A stretch of DNA of 64,000 bases from an uncultured virus (IMG/VR IMGVR_UViG_3300012984_000011) (lineage: Duplodnaviria; Heunggongvirae; Uroviricota; Caudoviricetes): IMG/VR virus record IMGVR_UViG_3300012984_000011; one strand, written 5' to 3'. Made by a program: the position numbers and the translations under genes. The notes under the pieces are model-generated. The model worked only from the letters and a program-made list of their open reading frames with translations. It was not told where the DNA came from and searched no databases. Position 1 is the stretch's first letter. The number at the start of each line of letters is the position of its first letter. Positions 3,824 to 61,257 of this stretch are shown one piece after another.

Positions 3824-3894
3824 GCCAGACCATACGGCCCAACTGCCAACCGCTTAAGCCTGCCCATCACCATCCCTCGGTGTAGAACCACCCT

Positions 3895-4101
3895 ATGCCG
3901 GTCTTCGTCCAAGCTTTGGCCTGCTGTGAAGTCCAGGGCTGCAACAAGGAAGAACCCTTCCTCCTAGGCCTAGAACCTGTGGTGGGGATGAGTGGCCCCG
4001 TCATGGGCAAGAAACTACCGCCTGGCTGGAGACGGATCCTAAACCTCTGGGCCGCCCACTCGACCGTGGTGTGTCCCGCTCATTCGATCGAATTCCCATG
4101 A
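3895..4101 (+). CDS. small Zn-binding-like protein, tandem copy 1
   Basis: CEVQGC...LPPGW...CPAH; class B motif at 3879. Confidence 0.75.
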   Translation: MPVFVQALACCEVQGCNKEEPFLLGLEPVVGMSGPVMGKKLPPGWRRILNLWAAHSTVVCPAHSIEFP

Positions 4102-4316
4102 TCACCCTCCAAACCACCATCACTTGTGAAGTCGGTTGCAGTCGCCAGCAGGTTTGCTCGATCGAGCTTCAACGCCTCGCCCTAGCCTCACAACAACTCA
4201 TCCTGAGCCTACCTCCCACCCAGCTGCCAGAGGGCTGGACCCTCCAACCTGACTACCGAGGCGGACACCGAATCGCCTGCCCCGATTGCTCATACGATCA
4301 CGGAAGCGAGTTCTGA
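4098..4316 (+). CDS. small Zn-binding-like protein, tandem copy 2
   Basis: CEVGC...LPEGW...CPDC; ATGA overlap. Confidence 0.75.
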   Translation: MITLQTTITCEVGCSRQQVCSIELQRLALASQQLILSLPPTQLPEGWTLQPDYRGGHRIACPDCSYDHGSEF

Positions 4317-4558
4317 TGCAACTCTACATCCTAGCTACCGCCATGTGCCAACACCCCGGCTGCCCAAGGACCGAACAACTAAAACTTGAACTCGCTCCCA
4401 CCTTCCCGTTCTTCCAACAACCATTCCTATCCCCACGCTACAATGAATTGCCCGAAGGTTGGGTACAAGCATTCGATTGGAAACTGTTCTGCCCCGATCA
4501 TGCTCAACCATATACTCAAGAAGAAGGTGGCACCACCGTAGATTCGGCCGAATCTTGA
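4316..4558 (+). CDS. small Zn-binding-like protein, tandem copy 3
   Basis: CQHPGC...LPEGW...CPDH; TGATG overlap. Confidence 0.75.
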   Translation: MQLYILATAMCQHPGCPRTEQLKLELAPTFPFFQQPFLSPRYNELPEGWVQAFDWKLFCPDHAQPYTQEEGGTTVDSAES

Positions 4559-4697
4559 GCCATCACCTCCAACCAGACGATCCGAAGCCATGGGCAGAGA
4601 CATGATAGAGCGATGCACACCGTCATGTGGGCGTCACTCTATTTCCGCACTTCCGAGCAATCATTTTGGCAAATCGTAGGTAGGGGGTTCGATTGGT

Positions 4698-4731
4698 AGG
4701 AGGATGGTCAAGGCTGCTTGACCATCCTCCT
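4698..4731. repeat. perfect 15-bp inverted repeat
   Basis: AGGAGGATGGTCAAG-gctg-CTTGACCATCCTCCT. Confidence 0.9.
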
Positions 4732-4733
4732 CT

Positions 4734-4749
4734 CGGCACGGTTCTTGCG
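4734..4749 (+). promoter_or_regulatory. possible sigma54 -24/-12 promoter
   Basis: cGGCACG-gttc-TTGCg versus consensus TGGCACG-N4-TTGCW. Confidence 0.4.
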
Positions 4750-4937
4750 AATCAATATAGTCAAGCAATATGGACTAATTTCCATCTGTTGAGTTAAATG
4801 CTGGTTATTATTGGTCTTTCGAGATTTTCGGATTTCTTGTCGATTTCGGGTTTGGCAAATGACCATCAAGAACACCCAACAGGGCCTGCTTCGCCTGCCA
4901 GGTTGGTCGGTTTGGGAGTTTGATTTTGAGTATCCAG

Positions 4938-5315
4938 ATGAGTAAACGTTGTCTTTTCGCCATCTGTTTGGTATTGCTGTCTTGTCAGGCCGACCCCACT
5001 CCTCCTCCTCCGGTGATGGACGTCACATGTGCTGATGGTCAGCATCTATGTCCGCATGGGAAGGTATGTACGCCTGATAGCCAGCAATGCGTCACATCGG
5101 TCCAATGGTGTGCTGACGGGCAGCATTGGTGCACGGGTGGGCGGGTGTGTGCACCTGACCTGACATGTGTGGACCGGTTATCTTGGTGTCGGGATGGGGT
5201 TCATTGGTGTAGTGGCGGTCTGATGTGTGGGGATGACCTACAGACGTGTGTGAGTCGACGGCATGATGATGGTCCTGACCTGTTGCCGGTCTACTATTGG
5301 GTGTTGTTCCAGTAG
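4938..5315 (+). CDS. lipoprotein with three Cys-rich repeats
   Basis: lipobox LLSC; 3x C.DG.H.C..G..C..D. Confidence 0.75.
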   Translation: MSKRCLFAICLVLLSCQADPTPPPPVMDVTCADGQHLCPHGKVCTPDSQQCVTSVQWCADGQHWCTGGRVCAPDLTCVDRLSWCRDGVHWCSGGLMCGDDLQTCVSRRHDDGPDLLPVYYWVLFQ

Positions 5316-5334
5316 GGTGGTGTAGAGGACCCGC

Positions 5335-5658
5335 ATGCAGACCATTGAATTTTTGGGACGTCAGCTCCCGTTGGTGTCGGTGGAGCGGCCCTCAACTGCT
5401 CGTGAGGTGTTGACATATGAGGCTCGGCAAGGGTCTATTAAACTGATGGTCTCCCATTACCCTAATTGGCACTATTCTGGGACCAGCCAGGTGAGGGTTG
5501 AGCTCCAGATGTGGGTACAATCGGGTAACCGCCATCTGACGTTTGAGGGGTGGGGGGAGGATATAGGGATGGCCGAGCTGGCGTTGAAGCGTCGGTGGGC
5601 TGTATGGATGGAGGCTGGAAGGGTGATGGGGTTGGAGATGGGGCTTGGCGACTTCTAA
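5335..5658 (+). CDS. hypothetical protein
   Basis: class B motif at 5319 (+16). Confidence 0.75.
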   Translation: MQTIEFLGRQLPLVSVERPSTAREVLTYEARQGSIKLMVSHYPNWHYSGTSQVRVELQMWVQSGNRHLTFEGWGEDIGMAELALKRRWAVWMEAGRVMGLEMGLGDF

Positions 5659-6322
5659 GTCGTATCCTGATAGACCGGACCCTCAAGAGGGGGTTAGGTT
5701 GTTGTTGATCCATGACCTCAAGGCTTTGCTGAGGCTATTTAACATTGGTGGTTGGACCTTGATGCCTAATCCACAGCGTAGTGGTATCAATCGAGCGATC
5801 GACCGTGAGGGGAAGGCGATAGATCCTCGCTCCCATGAGGCGGTGGCGTGGAACCTGATTGGCGGCATGTTGGCGGTGACGGCTGCTAGGACGGAACTAG
5901 ATGACCGGTATGTGGCGTTGTATGGTCATTTGGTCGAAGGTTTGCCCAATTGGGGGCCGGACCTACATCGGTTTAGTCAGACAGCTGAGCGGTATCAAGT
6001 CATAGGGCTGATCGAACGGGGGTTGGATCGCATCCAGGAGGGGTTGCCGGCCAGAGATGAGGCGCAGCTTTGCAGTGGGTGCCGTCATTTCAGTATGGGG
6101 ACTGATGGGGGGACGGTAGGCCATGAGGGGAGGCTGTATGGTTGGTGTGGCCGGCCCCGATCTGGTAGTCCGTTCCTTCCTGTCGTGATGGTGGGACCGG
6201 ACCCTGACCGGCCTGACGACCCATGGAATCATGCCAAACCTGACTTGAGTGGGCCGGTCGGTCATTTGGTGCTACCTACCCACTATTGCTCAGCACATCA
6301 GACCCGTGGGGGATCCCGATAG
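5645..6322 (+). CDS. hypothetical protein; N-domain similar to 26700 and 40925 (DUF6197-like)
   Basis: DLKALLRLF..GWT...A.D.EG...AV.W.L.G; Cys-rich C-terminus. Confidence 0.65.
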   Translation: MATSKSYPDRPDPQEGVRLLLIHDLKALLRLFNIGGWTLMPNPQRSGINRAIDREGKAIDPRSHEAVAWNLIGGMLAVTAARTELDDRYVALYGHLVEGLPNWGPDLHRFSQTAERYQVIGLIERGLDRIQEGLPARDEAQLCSGCRHFSMGTDGGTVGHEGRLYGWCGRPRSGSPFLPVVMVGPDPDRPDDPWNHAKPDLSGPVGHLVLPTHYCSAHQTRGGSR

Positions 6323-6323
6323 T

Positions 6324-6605
6324 ATGCAAGATATCTTGCGAAAGATACATCTACAGCATTATTGTAGCCAAATGCCCTACCCTGACGATTCATCTCCTCA
6401 GTCGATAGGGGCCCGATTGGCTCATGATGAGGATGAAGCCCGCTTGTTTGGCCAGTTTCAGCGGGACTGTTTGGAACAGCTGGGGATCAGACAACATCCT
6501 AGAGGGCAGCAGGCTTTCAATATGGCATGGGGGCGTTGCCATCAGGAGGGGCATGAGGCGGTATTTCGAGAGCTCAGGTATTTGGCCGATCTGTTGTGGG
6601 CATAG
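6324..6605 (+). CDS. hypothetical protein, paralog of the C-domain of 10043..10546
   Basis: F.RD.LE..G...HP...A..MAW...H.EG. Confidence 0.7.
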   Translation: MQDILRKIHLQHYCSQMPYPDDSSPQSIGARLAHDEDEARLFGQFQRDCLEQLGIRQHPRGQQAFNMAWGRCHQEGHEAVFRELRYLADLLWA

Positions 6606-6614
6606 GATGCGTAG

Positions 6615-6803
6615 ATGATTCCTTTGGTACCAATCTTGACCAACTGTCCAGCTTGCCATCGGTTGTCCCGGTACTGCGGTTGCGCACCTGAGCAGGCCCC
6701 TACCTGCAAGGTTTGTAGGAAGCCTCTGGCTGATGGGCCGCACCATCCTGAGGTCGATTGTGGGGCCTCGTATGAGGAGTTGGACCAATCGGACGGCACC
6801 TAA
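6615..6803 (+). CDS. small Cys-rich protein
   Basis: CxxC pairs. Confidence 0.55.
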   Translation: MIPLVPILTNCPACHRLSRYCGCAPEQAPTCKVCRKPLADGPHHPEVDCGASYEELDQSDGT

Positions 6804-6838
6804 AGTATCTTGTTTGGTCTGATGGTGTAGATTGTTGG

Positions 6839-7117: not shown

Positions 7118-7147
7118 CTTCCCAGCTGGCGATCCGTTCTAGCCAGC

Positions 7148-16332: not shown

Positions 16333-16392
16333 CTGGCTTTCAGTACACCGATTGGTGTAGGGTGGGCCAACCGTCCCTAAAGGAGACAACGG

Positions 16393-17004
16393 ATGAAAAA
16401 TATGGTGAGATTGTTCGGTATGTTGCTTGCGTTGCTGGTTCTCAGCAGCACCACACAGGCGCAGGCGCTTCCCAGCTGGTGCTACGACTATACGTCCTAC
16501 GACAGCTTCAACGGCTGGGGTAATTGGGGTCTTTGGAATGTCTCGGTATCGGGTGTCACCAAGGTTGGCACCACTGGAAGCAACAAGAGCCCGCCTGGGG
16601 CAGTGTTGATGTCGTTTGCCGATAGAGAGTCGAATGGCAACTTTATGGCGCTTGACAGGTATTTCACGCTAGCAGGAGACGCTAACTCTCGTTACGATGC
16701 TTGCCGAGGCAGGACCTCCTCAGGTCCGTTTTCACAGCAATCCAGCAATGCCAAGTTCTGCAGTGCGGAGGTGTCGGTCCGTACCTCTCAAGGTGCACAC
16801 GTAGCGATCGTCTTGCTGGATCCAGATTACTTCATCATGTCGCAGAAAGAGATTGATCTGCCGAAATCCACCGCTTGGACTAGGATCTGGACTCCAGAGG
16901 TGTTGAATTGTAGGCAAGATGTGGTGGTTCGCCTTGCGTTGGTCAAGACCGCCACATCTGCGTCAGTCCAATTCGATGACTTTCGAATGGACTGGTGGTA
17001 CTGA
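16393..17004 (+). CDS. secreted protein, probable beta-sandwich/carbohydrate-binding-like fold
   Basis: Sec signal ...AQA; canonical AAGGAG SD; own terminator. Confidence 0.8.
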   Translation: MKNMVRLFGMLLALLVLSSTTQAQALPSWCYDYTSYDSFNGWGNWGLWNVSVSGVTKVGTTGSNKSPPGAVLMSFADRESNGNFMALDRYFTLAGDANSRYDACRGRTSSGPFSQQSSNAKFCSAEVSVRTSQGAHVAIVLLDPDYFIMSQKEIDLPKSTAWTRIWTPEVLNCRQDVVVRLALVKTATSASVQFDDFRMDWWY

Positions 17005-20711: not shown

Positions 20712-20746
20712 TCTTGACCATACACCAACGGGTGTAAATGACCTGG

Positions 20747-20917
20747 ATGAACTCTGGCTGGTATCACGATCAAGAGTGCGACCTGAAGTGCAATTTCGAG
20801 GAAGGGTGTGGGAAAGAGTGCATCCTTATCTCGATCCATGGCGGAGAACTACATGTCTGTAGTGCTCACCGAGACGAGTACTTCTCCAAAGAGAGTCAGA
20901 GGGTCTCTCAAAAGTAG
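20747..20917 (+). CDS. small Cys-rich protein (56 aa; not in ORF track)
   Basis: class B motif at 20731 (+16). Confidence 0.6.
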   Translation: MNSGWYHDQECDLKCNFEEGCGKECILISIHGGELHVCSAHRDEYFSKESQRVSQK

Positions 20918-21997: not shown

Positions 21998-22048
21998 GGA
22001 CACTTTCCTGCGCTATACACCGTTTCTTTGGTTCGGTGTATAGCTGCT

Positions 22049-22903: not shown

Positions 22904-22919
22904 TGGTGTATAGCCCAGC

Positions 22920-23444
22920 ATGCTATTCACCTCATTGTTTGGAATTATTGGATTCTTCGTTGTGTTTGGGTTGGTGGCCCTGCTGACCGAAACAGAGCGG
23001 TATGTTTGGGCCACCCTATCGATCATCGCCTCATTGGTGGCAGCCCACTACTTGGCCGATCTGCATCTGTTGGCCTTCATCAAGGCCCATACACTAACTA
23101 GCGTGGGCTATCTGGTCGGCTTCATCGTGGTAGGCGTGGTGTGGTCGTTCATCAAGTGGTTCAGCTTCTTGGTGCGTGTCCGTGAGGTGATGAAGGAAAG
23201 AGGGGACTTCAATTTCCCTGTTGAATATAGGGGCCTCCCTCTGGACAAGAAGCCGCTCGCATCCGAGAACAAGAAGCGGATCACTGCTTGGATGATCTTC
23301 TGGCCATTCAGCCTCGTCGGCACCCTGCTGAATGATCCGATTCGCCGTATCTTTAACCTGATCTTCAACAGCTTGAAGAATCAATATCAACGATTGTCTG
23401 ACCGCGTGTTTAGGGATGTGACCTTTCCTCAAAAGAAAGACTGA
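22920..23444 (+). CDS. multi-pass membrane protein
   Basis: 3-4 hydrophobic helices; class B motif at 22905. Confidence 0.8.
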   Translation: MLFTSLFGIIGFFVVFGLVALLTETERYVWATLSIIASLVAAHYLADLHLLAFIKAHTLTSVGYLVGFIVVGVVWSFIKWFSFLVRVREVMKERGDFNFPVEYRGLPLDKKPLASENKKRITAWMIFWPFSLVGTLLNDPIRRIFNLIFNSLKNQYQRLSDRVFRDVTFPQKKD

Positions 23445-33700: not shown

Positions 33701-35137
33701 GACGGCGTACGGGGTCCCGAAGCCGAACTGCTGGCCCAAGATATACATCTGGCACCCGTAGTTCAGGGTCACGGCGGTTCCGGAGCCGTTCACCCACTCG
33801 GTGTCAGAGAGGCTTAGGCTCCCGGCACCAAACACGCCGGCCGGGTCGCCTCCGGTGACAGTCCCTCCGTTGAAGCAGCTCCCGACGGGGATGACGAGCG
33901 CGGTCAGGAAGGTTATGGGGCACTCGATGACGCACCCCTGCAAGACGGGGGATGAGTTGCCGTGAAAGGAGACCGCGAACGGTGAGATGCTCGCCCCGAC
34001 AAGACGGCTGTTCCGGGCCTGCATATTGCCGACGAGCTTGGTGTTCGTCGACGTCCCACCGCCGATCTGGCATTGCGACAGGTAGACGGCGGCGCTGCCG
34101 GCAGCAACGTTCACGAACTCGGCGCCGGCCGGCAGGATAGCGTCCCAAACACTCACAACGCCGCTGAGCGGATTGTTGGTGGTTCGAATTCGTAGGCGAT
34201 TGATCGTCACCTGTAGGGTGTCGATGACGACTGTCGTCCCGTTCGCGACGTTGACGATCCCTAAGCTGTTGGGGGAAGTCTCCTGAAACCAGGTTTTGAC
34301 GAAAGCGTTGGTTGAGCTGGTCAGGCCAGTCACGTAGGTGATTGCCCCAACAACCGCACCCGAGGTACTTCTGATTCTTGCCTTATCGACAAAGGTTCCA
34401 GCAGCTGTCTGGATGCTACCTCGGACAGGAGTCGCACTTCCAACTGTGTTGGTGACGCCACTCAGCGTGATGGATGCAGATGACGTGTAATCACACAGGA
34501 CCTTGAAGGCGTAATTTGAGCCAATCGGTATGTCTAGATCAATGTCAAAGAAGTTGTAGGTGCCGGCCGCAATATGGATTGTAGTGTTCTGCGCCAGAAC
34601 GAGCTTCGCCCCATTCGGGTTTAGACGTGCAGTCAGCTCTTCAACTGTAGCAAGAGGGTTGCCGACCTTACCATCATTGTTGTCGCTGCCCGTTGAAGCG
34701 TTGATGTACCAATCAGTCTGCAGTGCTAGGGAGTGACTGGCACTAAAGAATGTCCAGGTCGTTAGATCGCTGTTTAGAGAGTAGTAGACTTTGGTCAGCT
34801 TGCTGTAGACCAACATTCCCTCTCGCCTAGCCCCTGAGGGGATGGCGTTTCGAGCTGTGTTGTCAGCTACGATCATGAAGCTGGAATCACCCCCTATTGA
34901 TGTGATGGCCCAATCGGCATTTGTGAGACCCGCCCCCAATACATAGAATGTCCCATCATTGGTATGTACCAACATACCTTGTTTTCTAGAACTAGCTGGG
35001 ATCAAATCTCGTTCAGTAGTATCGGCTACCGCTACGAATCCGCCCAATACAGATGCGGCACGAACTGCCGCATTAGCGTCTCCAGGGACAGAGATTGGGG
35101 CAATAACTGTTACGTCACCAGGTTGATTGATACTCAT
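27797..35137 (-). CDS. giant tail fibre/adhesin-like protein (three ~400-aa repeats, collagen segment, beta-helix-like C-terminus)
   Basis: 2446-aa ORF; WY(I/V)NASTG.D.NDG x3; (GPT/GAT/GPA)n. Confidence 0.85.
29954..30286 (-). repeat. collagen-like Gly-X-Y coding repeat
   Basis: about 36 triplets [12 protein letters not shown]. Confidence 0.9.
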
Positions 35138-36309
35138 GATACATTCACAGTTGTTGATCCGAGACCTACTGATACGCTCTCATAGAGATCGTAGTTCTCG
35201 ATGAATCCTTGGGCGTTTGTCACACTAATGCCTGTAGCTCGTTGGATGAACCCACCTGTGAACCCACCTACTGAGAAACTGGGAGTTCCATATCTGGTGG
35301 GACATGCGTAGTAGATCTTTGTGCCAGCCGTTGCGTTGACCGAAAAAGAAGCATTACGAGAAGTACTCAAAGCATTGCCAGCCAATCCTTCGATGAAGGT
35401 CTCAGTGTTGGCCGGCGTACTGCTGACTCCCCAGAAGTTCTTCTGACCCCATGTGATCGACGCATTGGCGGTAGCGTTGGCTGACCCCGACAATGTGGCG
35501 GTGATGGTGAAGGTGACCGATTGGTTGGGGACGTTCTTTTGGAAGCTGTGACTGCTTGAAAAGCTGTTAGGAGTACTGCTGACATCTTTCGATTCAGCAT
35601 CTGCGTTGTTGATCAACGTCACACTATCAGGAGCAGTGTTGTAGCTGGCCGAGAACGACGGATTGTTGATTATTTGGCCTGTTTCCAGCAAACCCACCGA
35701 TACGTTGAACCCAGTGATCACCAACCCTCCAGGGATTGACCATATGGGGGTGGTGCCGTTGTACCCAATGAATTTACCGATAGCTGGAGTGCCCGCTACA
35801 TTCAATTGTCGGGCAATCAAGTCATTCAGCAGACCGTCCGCATCAATACCGCCTGCCCAACCTCCTGATTGTCCTCCAAAGTTCATCTCATTCGGTTTGG
35901 CACCTGCGAGACTAGATTGAGGATCTGGTAGAGGTAAGGGGTAGATCTGGACTGGAGGGACGAACAGGTTGTTCAATTCCCGAACACTGAAGACTCGAAT
36001 ATCGATGTCAGGAATCCCCACCCTATTAGGGACGTTCCACACCTTGAGTTGAAAACGGTAACTACGCCTCACATTGGGCGTGAATGTGACAGTAGGAGTC
36101 GCACCATTGTCACTGAAAGCCAATGCGGTGGTGGCAGGAGTGGTACTGCCAGGAGCGGCGTACAGCAGATCAATCTGCCAACTCGCCACCCCTGTGTTGT
36201 CACTATTGGTGACCGTTACTAGTTGGCCCAGCACCCCTGCAAAGGCCTGTCCAGCCAAACCAGTTCCAACCGTAGCTTGTGCAAATTTAAGTAGGGCGGT
36301 AGCTGGCAT
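35134..36309 (-). CDS. putative virion structural protein (Ig-like, Ser/Thr/Gly-rich)
   Basis: 391 aa, ATGA-coupled to the fibre gene. Confidence 0.75.
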
Positions 36310-36449: not shown

Positions 36450-36510
36450 CACATTCCGCTCTGGAATGATCACAACCACACTGTAACACAACTTGGTGTA
36501 AGCTGTCCGA

Positions 36511-36702
36511 ATGAAAGCTTTCCCTGCTAAGATCTCGTCCCCTTGGTTTAAGGCGTTGATCTTCACATCCTTGATGTTTCTGGTCGGATACTTGTGGATC
36601 TTGTTGGTGTGTGCTTACCCTAGCCTCGTCATTGTGAGCGCCGCAGTGGTTCTGTTTTTCCTCGTCCTGGCTATTGTGAAGTTCTGGCTCTTCGAATCCT
36701 AG
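36511..36702 (+). CDS. small membrane protein
   Basis: 2 TM segments; class B motif at 36495 (+16). Confidence 0.7.
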   Translation: MKAFPAKISSPWFKALIFTSLMFLVGYLWILLVCAYPSLVIVSAAVVLFFLVLAIVKFWLFES

Positions 36703-37497: not shown

Positions 37498-37833
37498 ATG
37501 ATCGTAGCCGAACATCAGGACGGTCGAACGCTCTTGTTAGCCGAGGAACTCGACCTAAAGCCTTTGCTGAAGCAGAACGGCAAATGGGGGCCGGCCACTG
37601 TCTCAATCGAAGATATGAGCAACTTCGAAGCTATTGAGGATGTTCTGACAGGTTGGTTGATCCTTATTGAGGCCACCTACGGCTTTAACTTCCTCATCAA
37701 CAGAGAGACGTTGGTGGAGAAGGATGAGTTCAGGCGTATCATGAGGCGAGACGCCTCCTATCCTGAGATCCAGATGTGGAACGCTTTGGTGCCGCCAAAG
37801 GTCCGTCAATTGCTCAATACTTCGGTGTATTGA
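37498..37833 (+). CDS. hypothetical protein
   Basis: in gene string. Confidence 0.65.
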   Translation: MIVAEHQDGRTLLLAEELDLKPLLKQNGKWGPATVSIEDMSNFEAIEDVLTGWLILIEATYGFNFLINRETLVEKDEFRRIMRRDASYPEIQMWNALVPPKVRQLLNTSVY

Positions 37834-37838
37834 AGGCT

Positions 37839-38147
37839 ATGCAGCCTCATCTGGATCGGACCGAAGAAGAGAAAGTCAAACTGGCGACCGAGGTCATCAC
37901 CTATCTGAATGAGGTGTTGGCTCTTGACCCCGAGGCGATCACCAATCTCTGCGAACAGCGGGTGTTCGCCAATCCTGAATTGGTCAATCATCCCACCACA
38001 CAGATCGGAGCCTTGAGAGATAGCTCTCCGGCCGTAGGTTTGTTGGGGATCCTCAACGGCTTGATAGGAGTGCAACCACGCAATCAATGGGGTTACGTCT
38101 CGGCCGTCTACGAAGGTGATAAGATCTCACATTTCCAACTCACATGA
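37839..38147 (+). CDS. hypothetical protein
   Basis: class B motif at 37824 (+15) sets the start. Confidence 0.75.
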   Translation: MQPHLDRTEEEKVKLATEVITYLNEVLALDPEAITNLCEQRVFANPELVNHPTTQIGALRDSSPAVGLLGILNGLIGVQPRNQWGYVSAVYEGDKISHFQLT

Positions 38148-41278: not shown

Positions 41279-41604
41279 TACATACTAACGTCCCACCCTA
41301 GATTCTTCAGCCCGTTGTGGATGTGCTCGGCCGCGATCGTGTTGGGCCCACCTTGGAAGGGTACACAGGGAGATATGAGGAACCCTCGGTAGCCCCAACT
41401 ACGACACCAATGGCCCGACATACCTGCCTCATCGATGGCAGTGAGGATCTTCTGGTAGGTCTTGGGCAGCGGCTTTCGCTTGAAGTTCAGGCAGACGGCA
41501 TCTCGATTGGCCGAGCCACCATCCTTCATCAGATGAACTTTGCTCGCGGCCTCAACCTGTAAAGTTCGAAGGTCGGAGGTCAATTTTGACAAATCTATCG
41601 TCAT
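41263..41604 (-). CDS. hypothetical protein
   Basis: minus-strand class B motif (+16); DGGSANRD motif. Confidence 0.75.
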   Translation of the reverse strand: MTIDLSKLTSDLRTLQVEAASKVHLMKDGGSANRDAVCLNFKRKPLPKTYQKILTAIDEAGMSGHWCRSWGYRGFLISPCVPFQGGPNTIAAEHIHNGLKNLGWDVSMYYQLD

Positions 41605-41651
41605 GATAGACCTCTACACCAAACATTCCATCGGTGTAGAGGTCTATCATG
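41602..41651. promoter_or_regulatory. divergent class B promoter pair (19-bp perfect inverted repeat)
   Basis: CATGATAGACCTCTACACC-N12-GGTGTAGAGGTCTATCATG, includes both start codons. Confidence 0.85.
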
Positions 41652-42698
41652 CGGACCTTTTCGAACTTTATTCTCAACTCCCCCAACCCATCTTTTGATG
41701 CGGATGACCTTCTCTATGGGTTGTGGTTGCTGGACAGTCTTGAACCTGGCGCCAAGCCCTTGGTGGTCAAGACTTTTGAGACCAAGCCTCAGGCTGATGT
41801 ATGGGAAGCCTTGGCAGATGACGGCTTTCGCCTCATCATGGATTTCCAAGAGCATCGGGTTTACTTGAACGATGTCAAGCAACTGGTCGTTTCTAACCCA
41901 AATGCCTACAGCGCTATCTATGTCGGGGGCCGAGACAAGGCAGATGTGACGGCTCTGTATGACACGCTGAAAAAGAAATACGGTCAAGCCTCTATTCCAA
42001 CCAACAACTTGAAGCTATTGGTGAGCAGCAATACCGGATATAAGCTGACCAACCTGTCAGCCCCTGCAGAACCCCTGCAGACCGGCAACTATTCTCCCCA
42101 GGTTCTGCAAAAGTTCAAACATCTGACCAAGCAGTTGGTAGCTGATCGGCCTAGGGGGAGGATCGGGGTATTGTCTGGTTACCCAGGCACTGGGAAAACC
42201 TATCTGTTGCGAGCCATCCTCAACGAGTATGTTGAGGATGTCGATTTTGTGCTCATCAACATTGAGCAATGTCTTCAGGTGAGCCAGAATTTGCACAGAT
42301 TCATGCAGATGTTGGCTACTCGTCCCGAAAGTGGGTATGCACGGCGAAAAGTAGTGTTGCTTCTGGAAGACGCGGACTCGGCCATCGCACCTCGTTCGGC
42401 CAACAATCTCTCGGCCATCCAAGCCATCCTCAATTTCGGCGACGGCCTGATGGGGGACGCTCTGGACGTCCGGCTGCTGGTAACAACCAACGTCCGCACG
42501 GTGGAGATTGACCCTGCCATCCTCCGCAAGGGTCGTTTGATTGCGCACATCGAGGTAGGTGCGTTGGACCCCGCACAGGCTAATGCGGCGTACCACCGAA
42601 TCTCTGGTGGCAAAGAAGGCTCCTACAAGCAAGCCACCACCATTGCCCAAGTGTATGATGATGTGGGTAAGTTGGAGGAAGTGCAGGCGGCTGAATGA
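41649..42698 (+). CDS. AAA+ ATPase (paralog of 25041..26057)
   Basis: GYPGTGKT, LLEDAD, TTN...IDPAILRKGR. Confidence 0.9.
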   Translation: MRTFSNFILNSPNPSFDADDLLYGLWLLDSLEPGAKPLVVKTFETKPQADVWEALADDGFRLIMDFQEHRVYLNDVKQLVVSNPNAYSAIYVGGRDKADVTALYDTLKKKYGQASIPTNNLKLLVSSNTGYKLTNLSAPAEPLQTGNYSPQVLQKFKHLTKQLVADRPRGRIGVLSGYPGTGKTYLLRAILNEYVEDVDFVLINIEQCLQVSQNLHRFMQMLATRPESGYARRKVVLLLEDADSAIAPRSANNLSAIQAILNFGDGLMGDALDVRLLVTTNVRTVEIDPAILRKGRLIAHIEVGALDPAQANAAYHRISGGKEGSYKQATTIAQVYDDVGKLEEVQAAE

Positions 42699-43578: not shown

Positions 43579-43598
43579 TTCCGGTGTATGTTTGCCTA

Positions 43599-43829
43599 AT
43601 GTCAAGTGAACACCGTCTGACCGCCTTTCTCTGTACCCTCCTCTGTATCTTCCTCTGCTACGCATCTGTTCAAGCTCGTGGCTGCACCGTATCTGACAAC
43701 GAAGTCAAGAAGCTAAATGAGCAGAATGCTGTAAAACTACAGCAACAAATGGTCCAGATGAAGGCCGATTGCGTCAATGCCGGCGGATCCTATGATGATC
43801 GAGGGGCCTGCTACCGTGGGGTTCACTGA
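43599..43829 (+). CDS. small exported/membrane protein
   Basis: class B motif at 43583 (+16). Confidence 0.65.
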   Translation: MSSEHRLTAFLCTLLCIFLCYASVQARGCTVSDNEVKKLNEQNAVKLQQQMVQMKADCVNAGGSYDDRGACYRGVH

Positions 43830-45061: not shown

Positions 45062-45294
45062 TGGCCGAGCTAGACCCGATCCATGGGTGTGACTATGCCT
45101 CACAACCCTACGTCACCTTTCGATGTACTGGTCTGAGTCACTATGTTGGGTGGGGGTATGTTGAACCCGTACCGCTACCTGAAGGGGTCTATCGTTGTGA
45201 TGGTGGGCTCTATAGCTTCCGATCTGAGCTGGAGACCTGTCCTGACTGTCTGGGGGTCGCCAGCACCCGTCCAATCGGTGTAGAAGACGCTTGA
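45058..45294 (+). CDS. hypothetical protein
   Basis: overlap; CPDC. Confidence 0.6.
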   Translation: MMAELDPIHGCDYASQPYVTFRCTGLSHYVGWGYVEPVPLPEGVYRCDGGLYSFRSELETCPDCLGVASTRPIGVEDA

Positions 45295-45533
45295 TGTCCT
45301 CAATCATTGGAACGACCGTGTTGTTAGGTGCGTTGGTTTATGGTGGAGTGGCTGTGGCGGTCCACCGTGAACTACGGCGATTCGGAATCCCCTCTAAGAA
45401 ACGGCTAAAATTGGCGGCAAAATGGCCCCAATTGATTCTGAACAGTCAAGCCTACATGCGGGAGATGATCTACAATACAGAAGCGCCCGCCACCCCTCCG
45501 ACCACTCCTCCAAACGCCAAATATTGGAACTGA
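45291..45533 (+). CDS. small membrane protein
   Basis: class B motif at 45277; N-terminal TM segment. Confidence 0.65.
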   Translation: MMSSIIGTTVLLGALVYGGVAVAVHRELRRFGIPSKKRLKLAAKWPQLILNSQAYMREMIYNTEAPATPPTTPPNAKYWN

Positions 45534-49495: not shown

Positions 49496-49533
49496 TCGAT
49501 GCTTTCCCCTACACCAGTGGTGTAAGGCCAAAC

Positions 49534-49953
49534 ATGAGTCTAGCTGACGAGATAGTGCGAGCTCTTTCCGATCGATCCCACAACCCCATCGATAGTATGG
49601 CATCGTTTGAAGTGGCTGGGTCATCCCCCATTCATTTGAAGGCCTCTATCGCGATGTTGATGGCCCAAATCAGGTCTGTCTCACATGTTCGAGCCAAAGG
49701 AAGTGAGATCATTTTCTCTGGTGGAATTGGTCATCATGAAATCGCTACCGATGGGTGGGTACAGCTGCCCTTCCCGCTCGACGCTTTGGGGGTGATCCAG
49801 ATGGCGGAGAACTTCTTCAGACAGATGGACCCTAAGGATCAGCCCACATACCCAGACCACGATGGTTCCAACTCGCCTGGCTGGAAGGTGGCCCGAAAAG
49901 GCTATTGGGGAGCCATCAGCGTATCGTTCAAATGGATGGAACACCACAAGTAG
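49534..49953 (+). CDS. hypothetical protein
   Basis: class B motif at 49519 (+15); PDHDGSN..GW. Confidence 0.75.
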   Translation: MSLADEIVRALSDRSHNPIDSMASFEVAGSSPIHLKASIAMLMAQIRSVSHVRAKGSEIIFSGGIGHHEIATDGWVQLPFPLDALGVIQMAENFFRQMDPKDQPTYPDHDGSNSPGWKVARKGYWGAISVSFKWMEHHK

Positions 49954-50380: not shown

Positions 50381-50400
50381 CTTCGGTGTATTGAGGCAAG

Positions 50401-50661
50401 ATGGCGAAATTGCGTGATTATGTGCTGAAGAGCTGGATGACCGAACGAGCAGGAGATGCAGTGTCGGTCCGGCATCTCAAGGGTCGTGGGGTGCTGATCC
50501 AGCGAGACAAGGGTTATTGGGCCTCGGTTGATGAGGATTGGGCATTGGTGGGGTTGATGCCCAACCAGAAGCTTCAGCAACCGACGGTCGGACCGTTCCG
50601 TACCCTCAAGGAAGCCTTTGAGGCTTTCGAGAGCGAACTGCCCATACCCGAGCCCGTCTAG
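50401..50661 (+). CDS. hypothetical protein
   Basis: class B motif at 50385 (+16). Confidence 0.75.
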   Translation: MAKLRDYVLKSWMTERAGDAVSVRHLKGRGVLIQRDKGYWASVDEDWALVGLMPNQKLQQPTVGPFRTLKEAFEAFESELPIPEPV

Positions 50662-52728: not shown

Positions 52729-53217
52729 ATGAGAGTGGTGATTTTGATTGGGCTACCAGGCGCTGGGAAATCTACTTGGATCAAGCGAAACACTTGGGGG
52801 GACGTTTCGATTTGCAGTGCCGATCATTGGCATGAAGGTCCAGGTGGATACAGCTTTGAAATAGAGGATCGGAGTTTGGCTCATGGGGCTTGTTTGCGCA
52901 AGTTCGTCAATCTGGTGTCCACCCCCATGCACTATTATCGGACCACCACTCCATTGTCTAGAGAATCGACGGTTGTGGTCGATAACACCAATGTGATGTT
53001 GTACGATCTTGCGCCTTACGTTCAGATAGCGTCGGCTTTTGGGCATTTTCCAGAGTTGGTGTTGCTGGAATGTCCGGTAGAGGTCAGCCATGCTAGGAAT
53101 GTGCATCAAGTACCTCTTAGTGTGATTGAGCACATGGATTACTGTCTTACCCGACTGATCGAGAACTGGCCAAACTATTGGCAACCCCCGCACAAGGTCC
53201 CTTTCGGTGGTGTATGA
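52729..53217 (+). CDS. P-loop kinase (AAA_33/polynucleotide-kinase-like)
   Basis: GLPGAGKST, SAD, VVVDNTN, RNVH.VP. Confidence 0.85.
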   Translation: MRVVILIGLPGAGKSTWIKRNTWGDVSICSADHWHEGPGGYSFEIEDRSLAHGACLRKFVNLVSTPMHYYRTTTPLSRESTVVVDNTNVMLYDLAPYVQIASAFGHFPELVLLECPVEVSHARNVHQVPLSVIEHMDYCLTRLIENWPNYWQPPHKVPFGGV

Positions 53218-53223
53218 CCTGTC

Positions 53224-54123
53224 ATGTGTTGTGTCATCGAATCTGGTACTGAGCTTTCCAACACCGTCATCTATTCAGCTGAAGTGGATCATCCCACAGA
53301 AGATGGGGTTGAGACAGTCCACGTCCTGGGTTATCAAAATAGTGTGACGGCCTACAGGCGAGGCCCGAATGCCATGATCCTACCCATCCCTGCCCTGGGT
53401 TCATTGGGTCCGGCTAATGTGGTGGATGCGAGCGGCTTCAAAGACATCTTGTCTGAATACCATCAAGCGATCGAGCATCTTAAACCCAAGCAGAAAAGCT
53501 TTTCCAGAAGCTTCTCTTTGAGTGAAGACGATGACGAAGATGTGTTGGGTGCAGTAGCCTTCGAGATCATTGACTCCGGTGCCTATACGGTAGCGCTGTC
53601 CAATTCAGCGGCTGGTTTGAATCTAGCGTTGAAAGAAGTTCCGTCCAACAAACGCCCCCATATCCCTGAGGCTTTCTTGGACGAATTGGGGCGTCTATAT
53701 CCAGAATGGCCAATCGCCATTTGTTGCTTTGATATGCAGGATATGCGGGGTGAAAGCACCGATCCGATATTCTGGTGGTACCGTCCTAGGGCCGGCTTTG
53801 AAAACACATTGTTCGCTCCTGCGATCGACGCTCATGACGGACGCCCGCCTCGATTGGATAATTTGGTTCGTCGTGACCATACGTTGATTTTTGGTTCCAA
53901 GCGAGCCGAACAACTGAGACTGGGTGCCGGTATAGGGGATAAGCTGGATCGAATGATCCCTGCCGAGCATCGATGGATGTTCACTTCTGGGATTAGAGGT
54001 GGGTTCATCAACAATGGGAATCGTACCAAGAATGGGGATTTCACCATGTTGTTGGATGATGTGTTGGACCCTAAGAAGAGCTCCTTCGTGAACAATTTTA
54101 CGGTCTACCAACCATCCCCATGA
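53224..54123 (+). CDS. conserved-looking hypothetical protein (possibly DUF2330-like)
   Basis: YQN...NAMILPIP; class B motif at 53209. Confidence 0.7.
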   Translation: MCCVIESGTELSNTVIYSAEVDHPTEDGVETVHVLGYQNSVTAYRRGPNAMILPIPALGSLGPANVVDASGFKDILSEYHQAIEHLKPKQKSFSRSFSLSEDDDEDVLGAVAFEIIDSGAYTVALSNSAAGLNLALKEVPSNKRPHIPEAFLDELGRLYPEWPIAICCFDMQDMRGESTDPIFWWYRPRAGFENTLFAPAIDAHDGRPPRLDNLVRRDHTLIFGSKRAEQLRLGAGIGDKLDRMIPAEHRWMFTSGIRGGFINNGNRTKNGDFTMLLDDVLDPKKSSFVNNFTVYQPSP

Positions 54124-56325: not shown

Positions 56326-56493
56326 TTACACCTCCGGTGGAATGAAGGCGACCATGCGGAAGAACCCGAAGGGTTGCTCTTGCTGGATCCACAACTGAAC
56401 CTCCTGCCAAGCAGCTTCAACTTGTTCGTCTGGTCCAGGGCCGATGAAGGGTTTCCATGTCATTAGATCAGTTGATGATTCGATGATTTTCAT
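56326..56493 (-). CDS. hypothetical protein
   Basis: minus-strand class B motif at 56504-56509 (+16). Confidence 0.65.
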   Translation of the reverse strand: MKIIESSTDLMTWKPFIGPGPDEQVEAAWQEVQLWIQQEQPFGFFRMVAFIPPEV

Positions 56494-56548
56494 CTGGGTG
56501 CGATACACCGGCCTTAACCTTCTGGTTTGGTGTACCGTAGGACCCACC

Positions 56549-56794: not shown

Positions 56795-56797
56795 ACC

Positions 56798-58212: not shown

Positions 58213-58435
58213 ACCAAGGGAAAGACAGTTGCTCTGATCCATTCCGATATCTTCGGATGGTGTTGACCCGTTGGGATAATTCTGGGTAATCCTTCATGTC
58301 CCCTGAATGACGGCAGCCGTGACATAAGAATTTGTCGTTTGGCCAGATGGTCAGAGAAGGGGTCTTTTCACGATGAAAGCAACATAGGACTGTAACTTGT
58401 CCCGAGCTACTGATCCGTTCACGTCGGGACGTCAT
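58196..58435 (-). CDS. stand-alone CHC2 (primase-type) zinc-finger protein
   Basis: CCFHREKTPSL...FLCHGC..SGD; start MTSRRER. Confidence 0.75.
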   Translation of the reverse strand: MTSRRERISSSGQVTVLCCFHREKTPSLTIWPNDKFLCHGCRHSGDMKDYPELSQRVNTIRRYRNGSEQLSFPWFNAED

Positions 58436-58689
58436 TCTTCTTCGCTGAGCCGACGGATATCCCGACGGTTGTTGGTCCAAAGCAAACCCCAGATCAACAT
58501 CACGTAGGGGATGGGGGCCAACAGTGGCCAGAACCAGTAAGCTCCTATCAGCAAAACTGACCCAAGAATCCCCAACCAGATCGACATGGTCCAATTGTCG
58601 GCTCGTATTTCGGCCAACTCGGCGGTCCGCTCGGCTCGCCTGACGGCGTCTAGCGCCTCTATGACTTTTGGGTCCAGTGGTTTGGGCAT
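58432..58689 (-). CDS. membrane protein
   Basis: 2 TM segments; start MPKPLDP. Confidence 0.65.
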   Translation of the reverse strand: MPKPLDPKVIEALDAVRRAERTAELAEIRADNWTMSIWLGILGSVLLIGAYWFWPLLAPIPYVMLIWGLLWTNNRRDIRRLSEEE

Positions 58690-59204
58690 CAGATGTGAAG
58701 CGCCTTCTGGAGGGGTTCCCAACCCATCTGGGTGTAGAGGTAGCAAGTTAGTGCGAACGATTTACTTTGACGCAAGTTTGGTAGCCCAAATTTCAGAAAG
58801 GATAAGGCCCGTCGCCACTCATAGTAGACACCTAGATCCTTTATCGAGAATCTCATCGCATTATTTCGGCCTTCCATCAACCAAGCATCTGTTGGATTCG
58901 GTGGATTGTACTCAAGCAACCCTAGACGTTGATGGGACACGTTCTCATGGGCTATGTGGACCTTCTGACGGCCATCAAAGGTTTCAGAGTGTTGCAGGAT
59001 CACCGGCCAGATCTTGGAATCGGCCGTCTCTTGACGAAGATTGAAATTCCTTTCAGCCAAAGCCTCTGAGTGAAGGATTCGTTGAAGCAGGACCTCTTTG
59101 TAGAGGCCGCCATGTAACGGAATAGCGTTGGCAAACGCCAATTTGGGAGCCAACAGCACGAACCCCACAGCCGGCACCAGACTTAGAAAATCACGTCTTT
59201 CCAT
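58689..59204 (-). CDS. putative Tat-exported protein
   Basis: MERRDFL...AFA; minus-strand class B motif (+15). Confidence 0.75.
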   Translation of the reverse strand: MERRDFLSLVPAVGFVLLAPKLAFANAIPLHGGLYKEVLLQRILHSEALAERNFNLRQETADSKIWPVILQHSETFDGRQKVHIAHENVSHQRLGLLEYNPPNPTDAWLMEGRNNAMRFSIKDLGVYYEWRRALSFLKFGLPNLRQSKSFALTCYLYTQMGWEPLQKALHI

Positions 59205-59238
59205 CCATGTCTCTACACCGCTGGTGTATTGACCCCCA

Positions 59239-60213
59239 ATGACCATCAATACCAAATTCTGGGGCGTCCGAGGTTCGGTCCCCACTCCGTTGACCCCCGC
59301 TCAGGTTAGCGACAAGGTCAGACGGGCCTTTGAGGCAGCTGAGCGTGGTGACAGCTTCGATATGCTGTCTTTTGAAGAATCGAGCACCTACGGAGGTAAC
59401 ACCACCTGTGTGGAGGTTCAGGCAGGTGGACAGCTATTCATCCTCGACATGGGGACCGGCCTCAGAGAGCTGGGCAATCATCAGATGAAACAGCTGATGG
59501 TAACAAAAACCCTCAAAGGAACGATCCTCCAATCTCACGTCCATTGGGATCACATCCAAGGTATGCCCTTCTGGAAGCCCCTATACTTGCCTCGGAAGCG
59601 TTTTCAATGTGACTTTCAGTTCTTTGGTGGCAAGAGCTGGGACAGCGAGCTGGATCGGGTATACCGAGGTCAAATGAATCCCCCAGTTTCTCCAGTAAAT
59701 CTGGAAGAACTTCAACAGATAGCCATGCATATGACTTCCAATAGCGTCTATGATGGCTGGATACGTATTTTCAACGACTCTAAGGATCTGGCCGATCCTG
59801 GCGTCACGGTGATGGCTAGAAAACTGTTTCACCCTCAAGACACGTTTGGCTACCGGATCGAACATCAGGGGCAAAGCATCGCCTTTACGACCGACCATGA
59901 ACCTTACCGCGGCGGCACTCCTGTTGGATTACTTGAGTTGGTGCAGGGAGTTGACGTGTGGATCACCGATTGTCAATACGATCTACACACCTATCAGGGG
60001 AAGAAGAACGGACCCGCCAAATATGGTTGGGGGCATTCATTCCCTGAGTACATCTCTGAAGTGGCGGCCGAGGCCAAGCCCAAGAAGGTGGTGACCACTC
60101 ATCACGATCCAGAGGCGGACGATTTTCAGATCCGGATCATCGCTCAACAGGTGCAAGACCTCTGTGGGATCGAAACCCTGGCCGCCTATGAGGGGTTGGA
60201 GATAACAGTTTGA
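59239..60213 (+). CDS. MBL-fold metallo-hydrolase (phosphodiesterase/RNase Z-like)
   Basis: GGNTTC, DMGTG, HVHWDH, HP, TDHE, GHS, HHDP. Confidence 0.9.
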   Translation: MTINTKFWGVRGSVPTPLTPAQVSDKVRRAFEAAERGDSFDMLSFEESSTYGGNTTCVEVQAGGQLFILDMGTGLRELGNHQMKQLMVTKTLKGTILQSHVHWDHIQGMPFWKPLYLPRKRFQCDFQFFGGKSWDSELDRVYRGQMNPPVSPVNLEELQQIAMHMTSNSVYDGWIRIFNDSKDLADPGVTVMARKLFHPQDTFGYRIEHQGQSIAFTTDHEPYRGGTPVGLLELVQGVDVWITDCQYDLHTYQGKKNGPAKYGWGHSFPEYISEVAAEAKPKKVVTTHHDPEADDFQIRIIAQQVQDLCGIETLAAYEGLEITV

Positions 60214-60449
60214 CGTTCGATCAAGCCCTTCGAACTGGGGGGCTAGCTAGCCGAGCCGATTGGACTTGTGTGCTGCACATGATGACGGTCATTTGCTTGG
60301 ATGACGAGGTGACCCAAATATTCAGGGAATGGCCCAGTGGTCATGTCAGTCTCTACGAGCCTACTCATCACGATGTGGTGGCAGGTGATTGGGTGACGGC
60401 CGATTTCCCTGACCAGCTACCAGGAAAAGGTTATGTCCGAAAAGTGTAG
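60210..60449 (+). CDS. hypothetical protein
   Basis: overlap; D..A.DW C-terminal motif. Confidence 0.6.
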   Translation: MTFDQALRTGGLASRADWTCVLHMMTVICLDDEVTQIFREWPSGHVSLYEPTHHDVVAGDWVTADFPDQLPGKGYVRKV

Positions 60450-60945
60450 AGTTTGCGCCAGTATAGCAGCATTTTGTGACCCCAATATTGAGGTTGCAGA
60501 AGGGGTATGGGACGGTGAACACACTTGTGGCTTGTCCGCCGAAGTGCCTGTAGAGGCGACAATTGAGTCACCTGTCGAACAAACCGACGAAATCGTCATG
60601 TATGTGGTGGTCCGAACCGACCTGCAGATGAGCCCAGGCAAGCAAGGAGCCCAGATCGGCCATGCGGTTCACCTAGGTCTCAAGGGACCTTTGGACAATG
60701 CTGAGCATGGGAGATGGGAAGACGATTGGAATCGCCACAGTTACCCCAAGATCATGCTCCGAGCCGGCAGCGAGAAAGACCTTAGGAAGCTGCATGGGCG
60801 ATTGCTTGAGGGTGGGTATCATGCCGCTCTAGTGATCGATGAAGGGAGAACCGAGCTAACTCCTGGATCCGTCACCGCAGTGGGGATGATGCCGATGCCT
60901 AGATCGATCGCTCGTCAGTTCGTCAAACGCTTTCAGAAGCTATAA
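60433..60945 (+). CDS. pth2: peptidyl-tRNA hydrolase, PTH2 family
   Basis: MYVVVRTDLQMSPGKQGAQIGHA, PKI, DEGRTE. Confidence 0.88.
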   Translation: MSEKCRVCASIAAFCDPNIEVAEGVWDGEHTCGLSAEVPVEATIESPVEQTDEIVMYVVVRTDLQMSPGKQGAQIGHAVHLGLKGPLDNAEHGRWEDDWNRHSYPKIMLRAGSEKDLRKLHGRLLEGGYHAALVIDEGRTELTPGSVTAVGMMPMPRSIARQFVKRFQKL

Positions 60946-61215
60946 ATCCTCAGGTAGTTTGGACATGGCACATTTCCAGCAATACATGTAGGTGATGCGT
61001 CGACTGTAATTGGCTCCGCCTTCCGTATTGCTGCATTCAGGATCGGCACAAGGCCATGACAGGTCATTTTTGGCAAACACATCATCTTCTTCATTACAGC
61101 GTGGACAAGATCGACGCTCTCCTGTGAACTCGTGTAGGCATCTACACACCCAATGGTCGATCTTGATCCAGCTGGTAGGGCCGACGCATTCATTGGGGTC
61201 AGGGATTCGCCACAT
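60940..61215 (-). CDS. Zn-finger protein
   Basis: several CxxC; minus arm of the 40-bp palindrome. Confidence 0.65.
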   Translation of the reverse strand: MWRIPDPNECVGPTSWIKIDHWVCRCLHEFTGERRSCPRCNEEDDVFAKNDLSWPCADPECSNTEGGANYSRRITYMYCWKCAMSKLPEDL

Positions 61216-61217
61216 TT

Positions 61218-61257
61218 TGATGATCAATACACCGAAATTTCGGTGTATTGATCATCA
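61218..61257. promoter_or_regulatory. 40-bp perfect palindrome, divergent class B promoter pair
   Basis: TGATGATCAATACACCGAAA|TTTCGGTGTATTGATCATCA. Confidence 0.85.

Follow-up and report, generated by a model that had tools for sequence, protein, structure and literature searches.

Genomic context of the window

The 64,000-nt sequence analysed here (hereafter, the window) comes from an uncultured virus (IMG/VR record IMGVR_UViG_3300012984_000011) and carries, immediately upstream of many of its start codons, a short sequence box, YGGTGTA (where Y is C or T), whose distribution, conservation and probable role as a promoter element are the subject of this work. The window has a GC content of 53% and is part of a huge phage whose own contig spans 359,681 bp. 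Its identifiable products comprise a 2446-aa tail-fibre-like protein, a tyrosine integrase, two AAA ATPases, an MBL-fold hydrolase, a DNA methylase, an AAA_33 kinase-like protein and a PTH2 hydrolase. Most proteins of the window have no known family, with about 100 falling outside any family, and no tRNA genes were found within the window.

The window is 99% identical to a virus record of 308,895 bp (G001), whose completeness is put at 65%, and corresponds in reversed orientation to approximately 237-301 kb of that record; the ~455 called genes of G001, which derive from crude gene calls, are the basis of the gene counts given below. A syntenic huge phage with a capsid protein 92% identical is represented by contigs of 205 and 127 kb binned in a metagenome-assembled genome named Lysinibacter (G002), and a metagenome contig of 60% GC (L050) encodes an AAA ATPase 58% identical to that of the window phage. 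The nearest named phage, Myxococcus phage Mx1, is distant, with one ATPase at 35% identity. A megablast search with 24 kb of the window against known phages returned no match, protein-based searches of viral-contig loci returned zero or one distant relative, and a protein-based scan of genome contigs identified, besides one locus (L003), only distant AAA ATPases.

A GGTGTA box at a fixed distance from start codons

The first-pass annotation of the window had listed 27 GGTGTA boxes with a start codon 15-16 nt downstream of the first G (hereafter, class B boxes), and all 27 are found in the sequence with positions, start codons and distances as described (Table 1). Twenty-five of these start codons are ATGs opening at least 50 codons and one is a GTG opening 228 codons (11339>11354, first G to start); the remaining entry (44452>44468), with an open reading frame (ORF) of 17 codons, is doubtful. 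Four further sites, absent from that list, were recognised at 22035>22049 (offset 14), 45277>45294 (offset 17) and, on the minus strand, 16349>16332 (offset 17) and 61233>61215 (offset 18). For ORFs of at least 50 codons, 30 boxes in the window form 31 box/start pairs, with offsets of 14 (two pairs), 15 (13), 16 (13), 17 (two) and 18 nt (one).

Both the frequency and the position of the hexamer depart from expectation. The window contains 61 copies of GGTGTA on its two strands, against 21.4 +/- 4.5 (maximum 35) in 100 dinucleotide shuffles, and the hexamer lies 15-16 nt before 25 of the 583 window ATGs that open at least 50 codons, where its overall frequency predicts 0.56 (binomial P 1.2e-32). 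It ranks first among all hexamers at this distance, followed by TCCGTT, which belongs to the companion motif (class A) described below. The same pattern extends across G001, in which 80 of 200 copies have an ATG with an ORF of 50 codons or more at an offset of 14, 15, 16 or 17 nt (10, 38, 23 and 9 copies, respectively), every other offset from 6 to 60 nt having between 0 and 5 ATGs and about one apiece. The 112 copies in G001 that are not associated with a start approximate the chance expectation. Among 25 control and one-mismatch hexamers, none produced a peak in G001 save GTGTAG, which overlaps the box, and the lack of a peak for one-mismatch hexamers implies that all six bases are required. 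The association of the box with start codons is very strong and is confirmed as an observation.

Alignment of 88 box sites in G001 defines the element as YGGTGTAnnG, a single box. The base preceding the hexamer is C in 41 sites, T in 46, G in one and A in none (Y in 87/88), and the third base 3' of the box is G in 59/88, while the fourth has no preference (A 22, C 20, G 25, T 21). Information content does not exceed 0.16 bit at any position from -45 to -2 before the box, which bears out the earlier impression that a conserved -35 box is lacking. The end of the box is separated from the start codon by 9-10 nt, and the end of GGTG from the ATG by 11-12 nt. Altogether the box serves about 78-88 of the ~455 genes, or around one in five. 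The start codons of 78 class B genes are ATG (72) or GTG (6) and never TTG, as expected if a 5'-terminal codon is recognised directly. The box bases show no differences in 203 between the window and G001, against 0.8% overall, a sample too small for the comparison to be meaningful.

A companion two-box motif and the genes served by each class

The second start-associated motif of the window, class A, has the layout cTTAACTT, N13-15, (t)CCGTTCTA, 5-6 nt, ATG, within which AAC and CGT are separated by 16 nt. G001 contains 48 matches to the pattern TTAA-N16-21-CCGT, and in 37 of these an ATG or GTG follows CCGT by 8-11 nt. According to passages of a previous study (PMC5758882), extracytoplasmic function (ECF)-sigma promoters are marked by AAC around -35 and CGT around -10, ~16-17 nt apart. 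Class A shares both elements, whereas class B has no -35 part, and these putative class A promoters display an unmistakable ECF-sigma-type two-box architecture. Class A CCGT ends 9-10 nt before the ATG, in the same place as the end of the class B box. That two unrelated words, one of them clearly part of a two-box element, share their spacing to the ATG is the main reason for reading both as putative promoters of leaderless messages.

As anticipated in the first-pass annotation, the two gene sets hardly meet: under the assignment rules adopted here for G001, 78 genes belong to class B, 37 to class A and none to both. In one class A promoter (start 56549), GGTGTA lies directly 5' of the CCGT box. 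Class A genes are mostly small, with a median product of 103 aa, compared to 166 aa for class B. The gene content of G001 also agrees with the earlier statement that most enzymes follow class B boxes, since class B includes genes for a SNF2 helicase (with DNA polymerase A downstream in the same run), four AAA ATPases, a ClpX-like protein, a NUDIX protein, a transglycosylase and a UDP-glucose dehydrogenase. The capsid and baseplate genes have neither box, and the leaders of the structural region are ordinary Shine-Dalgarno (SD)-led ones. By analogy with the temporal programmes of other phages, class A would probably be early, class B middle (DNA metabolism) and the SD-led structural genes late. 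An A or B box stands directly on 115 of the 455 genes, and 296 of the 455 lie downstream of one in a same-strand run. Class A is far less conserved than class B, the G002 relative having only about five sites of a variant (TAAA, ~16 nt, CCGTAGAG).

A T-rich word (ccTTTTAt or cTTTTTA) also occurs upstream of several of the structural and packaging genes (L127-L131, G001 1-100 kb), a group with SD-led leaders and neither box, and might represent a third, late promoter class.

Conservation and specificity of the box

The box and its spacing recur in both relatives. Of the 12 boxes in L050, eight precede by 14-17 nt an ATG with an ORF of 40 codons or more, and GGTGTA is the top hexamer of that contig (8 vs 0.24 expected, P 2e-10). 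On two contigs of G002 the peak falls at offsets 15-18, with 16, 13, 4 and 9 cases on C1 and 4, 5, 3 and 1 on C4, and the box-start pattern clusters on phage contigs (C1 40, C4 14 and C2 7, among 100 matches listed). Upstream of the orthologous AAA ATPase genes of three phages, the box and the ATG alone are conserved. None of 301 bacterial genomes of the G002 phylum (11 of them flagged as unpublished) comes near the box density of the phage. The box is likewise not carried by relatives whose AAA ATPase is 40% identical or less, by viral contig L002 or by Myxococcus phage Mx1.

In a 40-kb stretch of Mx1 (L001; OR576727.2 62531-103247) two other upstream patterns are apparent. The first consists of TTGAC, N17, TAgAgT, a ~25-nt leader and a GGAG SD site, and the second of (t)aGATCnAC, 1-2 nt, cCGTA, 9-10 nt and ATG, without an SD site; 16 of the 41 GATCNA[CG] copies in this stretch are followed by an ATG 13-17 nt downstream. 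From its layout, the second is a putative start-abutting promoter class analogous to class B with a different word.

Promoter or translation signal

The first-pass annotation had set a single-box promoter of leaderless transcripts, read by a phage specificity factor, against a non-SD translation-initiation signal. The sequence favours the promoter, but the specificity factor was not found in G001. Six divergent gene pairs are separated by only 34-47 bp from ATG to ATG, a space containing only two opposed boxes, and eight opposed pairs occur in the window (TACACC, 3-19 nt, GGTGTA), with the hexamers as close as 3-4 bp. Seven of the 112 orphan boxes in G001 lie 31-45 nt before an SD-led first start, around five-fold more than the ~1.3 expected from a control rate of 1.2%, and these, of which the window contains two (16354 and 37029), have the look of promoters with an ordinary leader. 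On G002 contig C4, tGGTGTA is located exactly 9 nt 5' of a tRNA-Lys gene (L158:6353-6427), one of 39 tRNAs examined, where chance predicts ~0.03. Canonical sigma70-type matches are not enriched in the 36-56 kb portion of the window (7, vs 14.9 +/- 3.7 in shuffles).

On balance, we think that YGGTGTA is probably a -10-only promoter giving rise to leaderless or near-leaderless mRNAs. According to this proposal, YGGTGTA(nnG) would be a compact one-box -10-region promoter element, specific to a clade of huge soil phages, at which an RNA polymerase carrying a box-recognising factor would open the DNA. RNA synthesis would start 8-11 nt past the box, either at the first base of the ATG or no more than about three bases 5' of it, and TGTA would occupy about -14 to -9 if the RNA starts on the ATG or 1-2 nt before it. 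The resulting mRNAs, with no leader or nearly none and without an SD site, would be translated as leaderless messages. The reading factor is pictured as a divergent phage-made sigma of the phiEco32 gp36 kind, and the genes served, which are mainly for replication, nucleotide metabolism and other enzymes, would probably constitute a middle class. A more sweeping proposal takes the A and B boxes together as a phage-wide leaderless system with an undescribed phage specificity factor or polymerase and translation without SD pairing, whereby the phage would shut down or outcompete host SD-dependent translation in the early and middle stages and then turn to SD-led messages for virion genes; we regard this as distinctly unlikely.

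If the box instead acted as RNA, it would lie in a short 5' leader as a non-SD initiation element or as the site of a phage translational regulator, transcription starting elsewhere. The strict spacing to start codons and the orientation of the box, which is the same as that of the gene, would suit such a role. The SD cores of the phage's other genes, however, begin between -12 and -9. GGTG, with its first base at -16 or -15, lies outside the phage's own SD zone, and an SD role is disfavoured because the box is too far upstream. An SD core of any kind occurs in the usual zone of 12 of 78 class B genes (15%) and of 5 of 37 class A genes; among the 340 other genes, 109 have one at the called start and 157 if any early start is considered. 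The part of the box able to pair with the usual 16S 3' tail would be GGUG alone, ~8 nt too far upstream, and the invariant TA of the box has no pairing partner, although the 16S of the host may differ. There is no promoter-like conservation 5' of the box, and yet the divergent pairs leave just 34-47 bp between ATGs; the boxes located before the tRNA and at a distance from SD-led starts also count against this reading. A translational role has been proposed, in passages of PMC3203893, for a 13-bp asymmetric repeat preceding many starts in Cluster K phages, but the box has no GGAG core, unlike that repeat. We consider an RNA signal improbable. Translational re-initiation or coupling was dropped as a candidate, the divergent pairs having no upstream same-strand gene.

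The box could also be a promoter read by the host holoenzyme, through its primary or an alternative sigma and possibly after remodelling by a small phage protein, with no phage sigma or polymerase involved. This would agree with the failure to detect a sigma or RNA polymerase gene in 309 kb of G001, and has a precedent in phage P23-45, whose gp39 shifts the host sigma-A holoenzyme to -35-independent promoters, as passages of PMC7403470 relate. Against it, the box shows no T preference at the would-be -7 position and its TG abuts TA, leaving no extended -10 spacer base, so that it does not match the primary-sigma pattern (TAnnnT with its -7 T, and TGn one base upstream) even in the extended -10 form; moreover, neither the non-phage contigs of G002 nor the 301 genomes of that one phylum show enrichment of the motif. 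We judge this reading unlikely. Yet another role, as an RNA-processing site cutting long transcripts or as an operator half-site over unrecognisable promoters, appears highly improbable: the eight opposed pairs in the window do resemble inverted repeats and the hexamer does not vary, a common trait of protein-binding sites, but most sites are single and the 3 to 19 nt spacing of paired boxes is unsuited to a dimeric operator, while RNA processing would presuppose promoters, and nothing else conserved was found near box genes.

Several points weigh against a leaderless promoter. Its promoter role and the RNA start point are argued from geometry and analogy, and the ability of the host to translate leaderless mRNA is an assumption. 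Box offsets span 14 to 19 nt, for which either the start site would have to be chosen flexibly or leaders would have to vary from 0 to 5 nt. Of the 96 genes that stand first in apparent divergent pairs, as delimited by crude gene calls, only 35 have an A or B box, and other promoter types must therefore exist. The uncoupled, SD-led cases total seven, and the tRNA-Lys case is a single instance. Intrinsic terminators within 90 nt upstream were found for 1 of 78 class B genes; they are also sparse elsewhere (2 of 37 class A genes and 10 of 340 other genes), which renders the comparison uninformative. To these must be added the searches for the reading factor: the G001 record, judged 65% complete, yielded neither a sigma nor an RNA polymerase domain, and tblastn detected in the window phage no homologue of the sigma-like ORFs of its relative described below.

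Search for the reading factor

Six-frame searches of G001 produced no match to Pfam Sigma70_r2 or Sigma70_r4 or to the NCBIfam sigma70/ECF superfamily. The same six frames contained no match to RNA_pol_Rpb2_6 or RNA_pol_Rpb1_2 at E values up to 1, a search that very divergent polymerases would escape. The T7-type polymerase family had no match in G001 or in the control genomes, which makes that search uninformative, and a search for the DxDGD-type metal-binding motif yielded one unconvincing match in a 1349-aa protein of the structural region. The absence of sigma and polymerase genes from G001 is weak evidence either way.

In the relative, contig C4 of G002 encodes two adjacent ORFs of ~300 aa with sigma70 region 2 similarity (L159:5269-6177 and L159:3748-4662, both on the minus strand), which are candidates for the promoter-reading factor. 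One scores 25.2 bits against a Pfam cut-off of 24 and the other is weak, below threshold. L159:5269-6177 is preceded by a class-A-like AAAC...CCGTAGAGG box, 6 nt 5' of its ATG. The better of the two ORFs has 87 distant homologues in public data; a hidden Markov model (HMM) built from these detected nothing in G001, the window or C1, and a word-index search with the relative's sigma-like ORF returned only itself. The factor of the window phage may be encoded in the remaining third of the genome or have diverged beyond detection; it may also be supplied by the host.

Comparison with known promoter and leader systems

T4 late promoters, to which the first-pass annotation had likened the box, consist of TATAAATA at -10, require gp55, acting together with gp33 and the sliding clamp, for recognition, and give mRNA leaders with SD sites. 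The analogy is fair insofar as class B would likewise be a -10-only box defining a temporal class through a phage sigma-like factor. The T4 sequence is, however, unrelated to YGGTGTA, and class B looks like a middle, DNA-metabolism class, the structural genes having no box here. A closer parallel is phage phiEco32, whose middle and late promoters, according to passages of PMC12276001, each consist of one AATGTA hexamer centred at -11.5 and are recognised by the phage sigma gp36, which gp79 assists. The two systems have in common a single -10 hexamer without a -35 box, a TGTA core and the many phage genes served. They differ in the first bases of the hexamer (AA in phiEco32, GG here) and in the flanks, with Y before and nnG after the box in the window phage. 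The box here abuts the start codon, which would imply leaderless mRNAs, whereas the phiEco32 passages are silent on leaders. While phiEco32 has gp36, no gp36-like or other sigma was found in 309 kb of G001, which belongs to a huge soil phage.

Most middle and late transcripts of Thermus phage P23-45 are reportedly leaderless, a finding that goes back to Berdygulova in 2011. Its middle and late promoters belong to a -35-independent, extended -10 class served by gp39 and the host sigma-A, according to passages of PMC7403470, and phage transcripts "are often leaderless" in the words of a passage of PMC5312081. The window phage would thus resemble P23-45 in its -35-independent promoters and in a transcript start at the start codon, reported for the one and proposed for the other. 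The P23-45 promoters are primary-sigma variants (TGn and a TATAAT-like hexamer), in contrast to GGTGTA, with neither a -7 T nor a spacer base. The late promoters of the jumbo phages AR9 (AACA, N6, TA/G) and phiKZ (TATG) are recognised by phage non-virion multisubunit polymerases, as stated in passages of PMC5312081. These are likewise very short motifs near the start site in giant phages, controlling in the cases described more than 90 genes. The AR9 leaders reported there measure 26-491 nt, however, and both phages carry recognisable split beta/beta-prime genes, none of which were found in G001.

Leaderless genes of Actinobacteria and Deinococcus-Thermus have a TANNNT -10 element directly before the ORF, ~6-7 nt from the start codon, and transcription begins on the start codon itself. 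That arrangement is a host-wide property of the primary sigma, whereas the invariant heptamer described here is specific to the phage, with no enrichment in the 301 genomes of one phylum. The repeat of Cluster K mycobacteriophages (PMC3203893) is, in the passages describing it, likewise short, asymmetric, start-adjacent, kept in relatives and absent from hosts. It differs from the box in being 13 bp long with an rRNA-pairing GGAG core, the YGGTGTA element having no SD core and a geometry that fits a promoter. We found no report of a YGGTGTA box in the literature searched, subscription journals being outside that search.

Should the promoter reading hold, a clade of huge soil phages (~300-460 kb) would run many genes from a seven-base promoter, with the message beginning at the start codon, which would rank among the most compact transcription-plus-translation signals known. 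It would provide a simple rule for locating gene starts and transcription units in otherwise unannotatable genomes, point to a YGGTGTA-recognising factor and suggest that the hosts translate leaderless messages well. Once its factor is in hand, the box could additionally serve engineering as a very short orthogonal promoter.

Box sites in the window

Table 1. Class A and class B sites in the window. Spacing is the number of nucleotides between the end of the GGTGTA box and the start codon; "new" marks start-abutting sites absent from the first-pass list.
Coordinates	Strand	Spacing and start codon	ORF length	Remarks
3879..3897	+	10 nt, ATG	68 codons
5319..5337	+	10 nt, ATG	107 codons
6824..6841	+	9 nt, ATG	92 codons
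11339..11356	+	9 nt, GTG	228 codons
12283..12300	+	9 nt, ATG	93 codons
16332..16349	-	11 nt, ATG	225 codons	new; back to back with 16354 box
16354..16395	+	ATG (16393) 39 nt past first G of box	203 codons	SD-led (taaaggagacaacggATG); box uncoupled from start codon
18220..18238	+	10 nt, ATG	213 codons
19959..19976	+	9 nt, ATG	72 codons
20709..20726	-	9 nt, ATG	97 codons	divergent partner of 20731 box
20731..20749	+	10 nt, ATG	56 codons
22035..22051	+	8 nt, ATG	284 codons	new
22905..22922	+	9 nt, ATG	174 codons
25025..25043	+	10 nt, ATG	338 aa	AAA ATPase
36495..36513	+	10 nt, ATG	63 codons
37029..37073	+	ATG (37071) 42 nt past first G of box	141 codons	SD-led
37824..37841	+	9 nt, ATG	102 codons
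39371..39388	+	9 nt, ATG	84 codons
41602..41620	-	10 nt, ATG	113 codons	16 nt to ATG identical with 41633 partner
41633..41651	+	10 nt, ATG	349 aa	AAA ATPase; box kept at L050 and L003 orthologues
43583..43601	+	10 nt, ATG	76 codons
44452..44470	+	10 nt, ATG	17 codons only	doubtful member
45277..45296	+	11 nt, ATG	79 codons	new
49519..49536	+	9 nt, ATG	139 codons	opposed box 49510-49515 at 3 nt
50385..50403	+	10 nt, ATG	86 codons
51539..51556	+	9 nt, ATG	263 codons
52713..52731	+	10 nt, ATG	162 aa	AAA_33 kinase-like protein
53209..53226	+	9 nt, ATG	299 codons	followed by N6/N4 methylase gene; box overlaps end of upstream gene
56491..56509	-	10 nt, ATG	55 codons
59202..59219	-	9 nt, ATG	171 codons	opposed 59223 box at 3 nt
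59223..59241	+	10 nt, ATG	324 aa	MBL-fold hydrolase
61213..61233	-	12 nt, ATG	91 codons	new
61242..61259	+	9 nt, ATG	118 codons
7109..7150	+	start 7148		class A example: putative two-box promoter, ECF-sigma-like, abutting start
				class A start codons: 486, 1395, 3494(-), 3823(-), 7148, 9206, 9879, 10585, 13635, 40647, 48429, 49991, 52402, 57074 (integrase)

In two divergent pairs of the window (41589-41663 and 61213-61259), the box and the full spacer to the ATG form a perfect inverted duplicate, reading GGTGTAgaggtctatcATG on both strands in one pair and GGTGTAttgatcatc in the other. In each, a putative promoter-start module seems to have been duplicated.

Other features of the phage genomes

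The PTH2-type peptidyl-tRNA hydrolase of the window is encoded at 60433-60945 (+) with an E value of 4e-24, and a small protein encoded just 5' of it (60210-60449, +) has a weak, below-threshold match to a Tad2-like anti-Thoeris domain. Near the end of the G001 record (303361-304404) lie a tRNA-Leu(taa) (L142:3361-3434) and an odd tRNA-Tyr(ata) (L142:4334-4404) that contains GGTGTA. Class A boxes at G001 303205 and 304237, close to these two tRNA calls, have no ATG at the usual distance. The tRNA-Lys gene of G002 contig C4 is part of a cluster of 36 tRNA genes (L158:2799-12572, -).

Elsewhere in G001, genes for ClpX-like, topoisomerase IB, RNA ligase and CCA-adding/poly(A) polymerase-like proteins were identified, as was a gene for a Volactin-family (actin-like) protein (L128:14548-15597, +; G001 34548-35600), which matches Pfam PF25216 at 248 bits. 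Outside the window, G001 205573-209287 harbours a 1020-aa Cas9-like gene (L137:5573-8632, +; Pfam HNH_4, RuvC_III and Cas9_a), directly 3' of which lies a CRISPR array (L137:8741-9287) with at least eight repeats of 36 nt at a 72-nt period.

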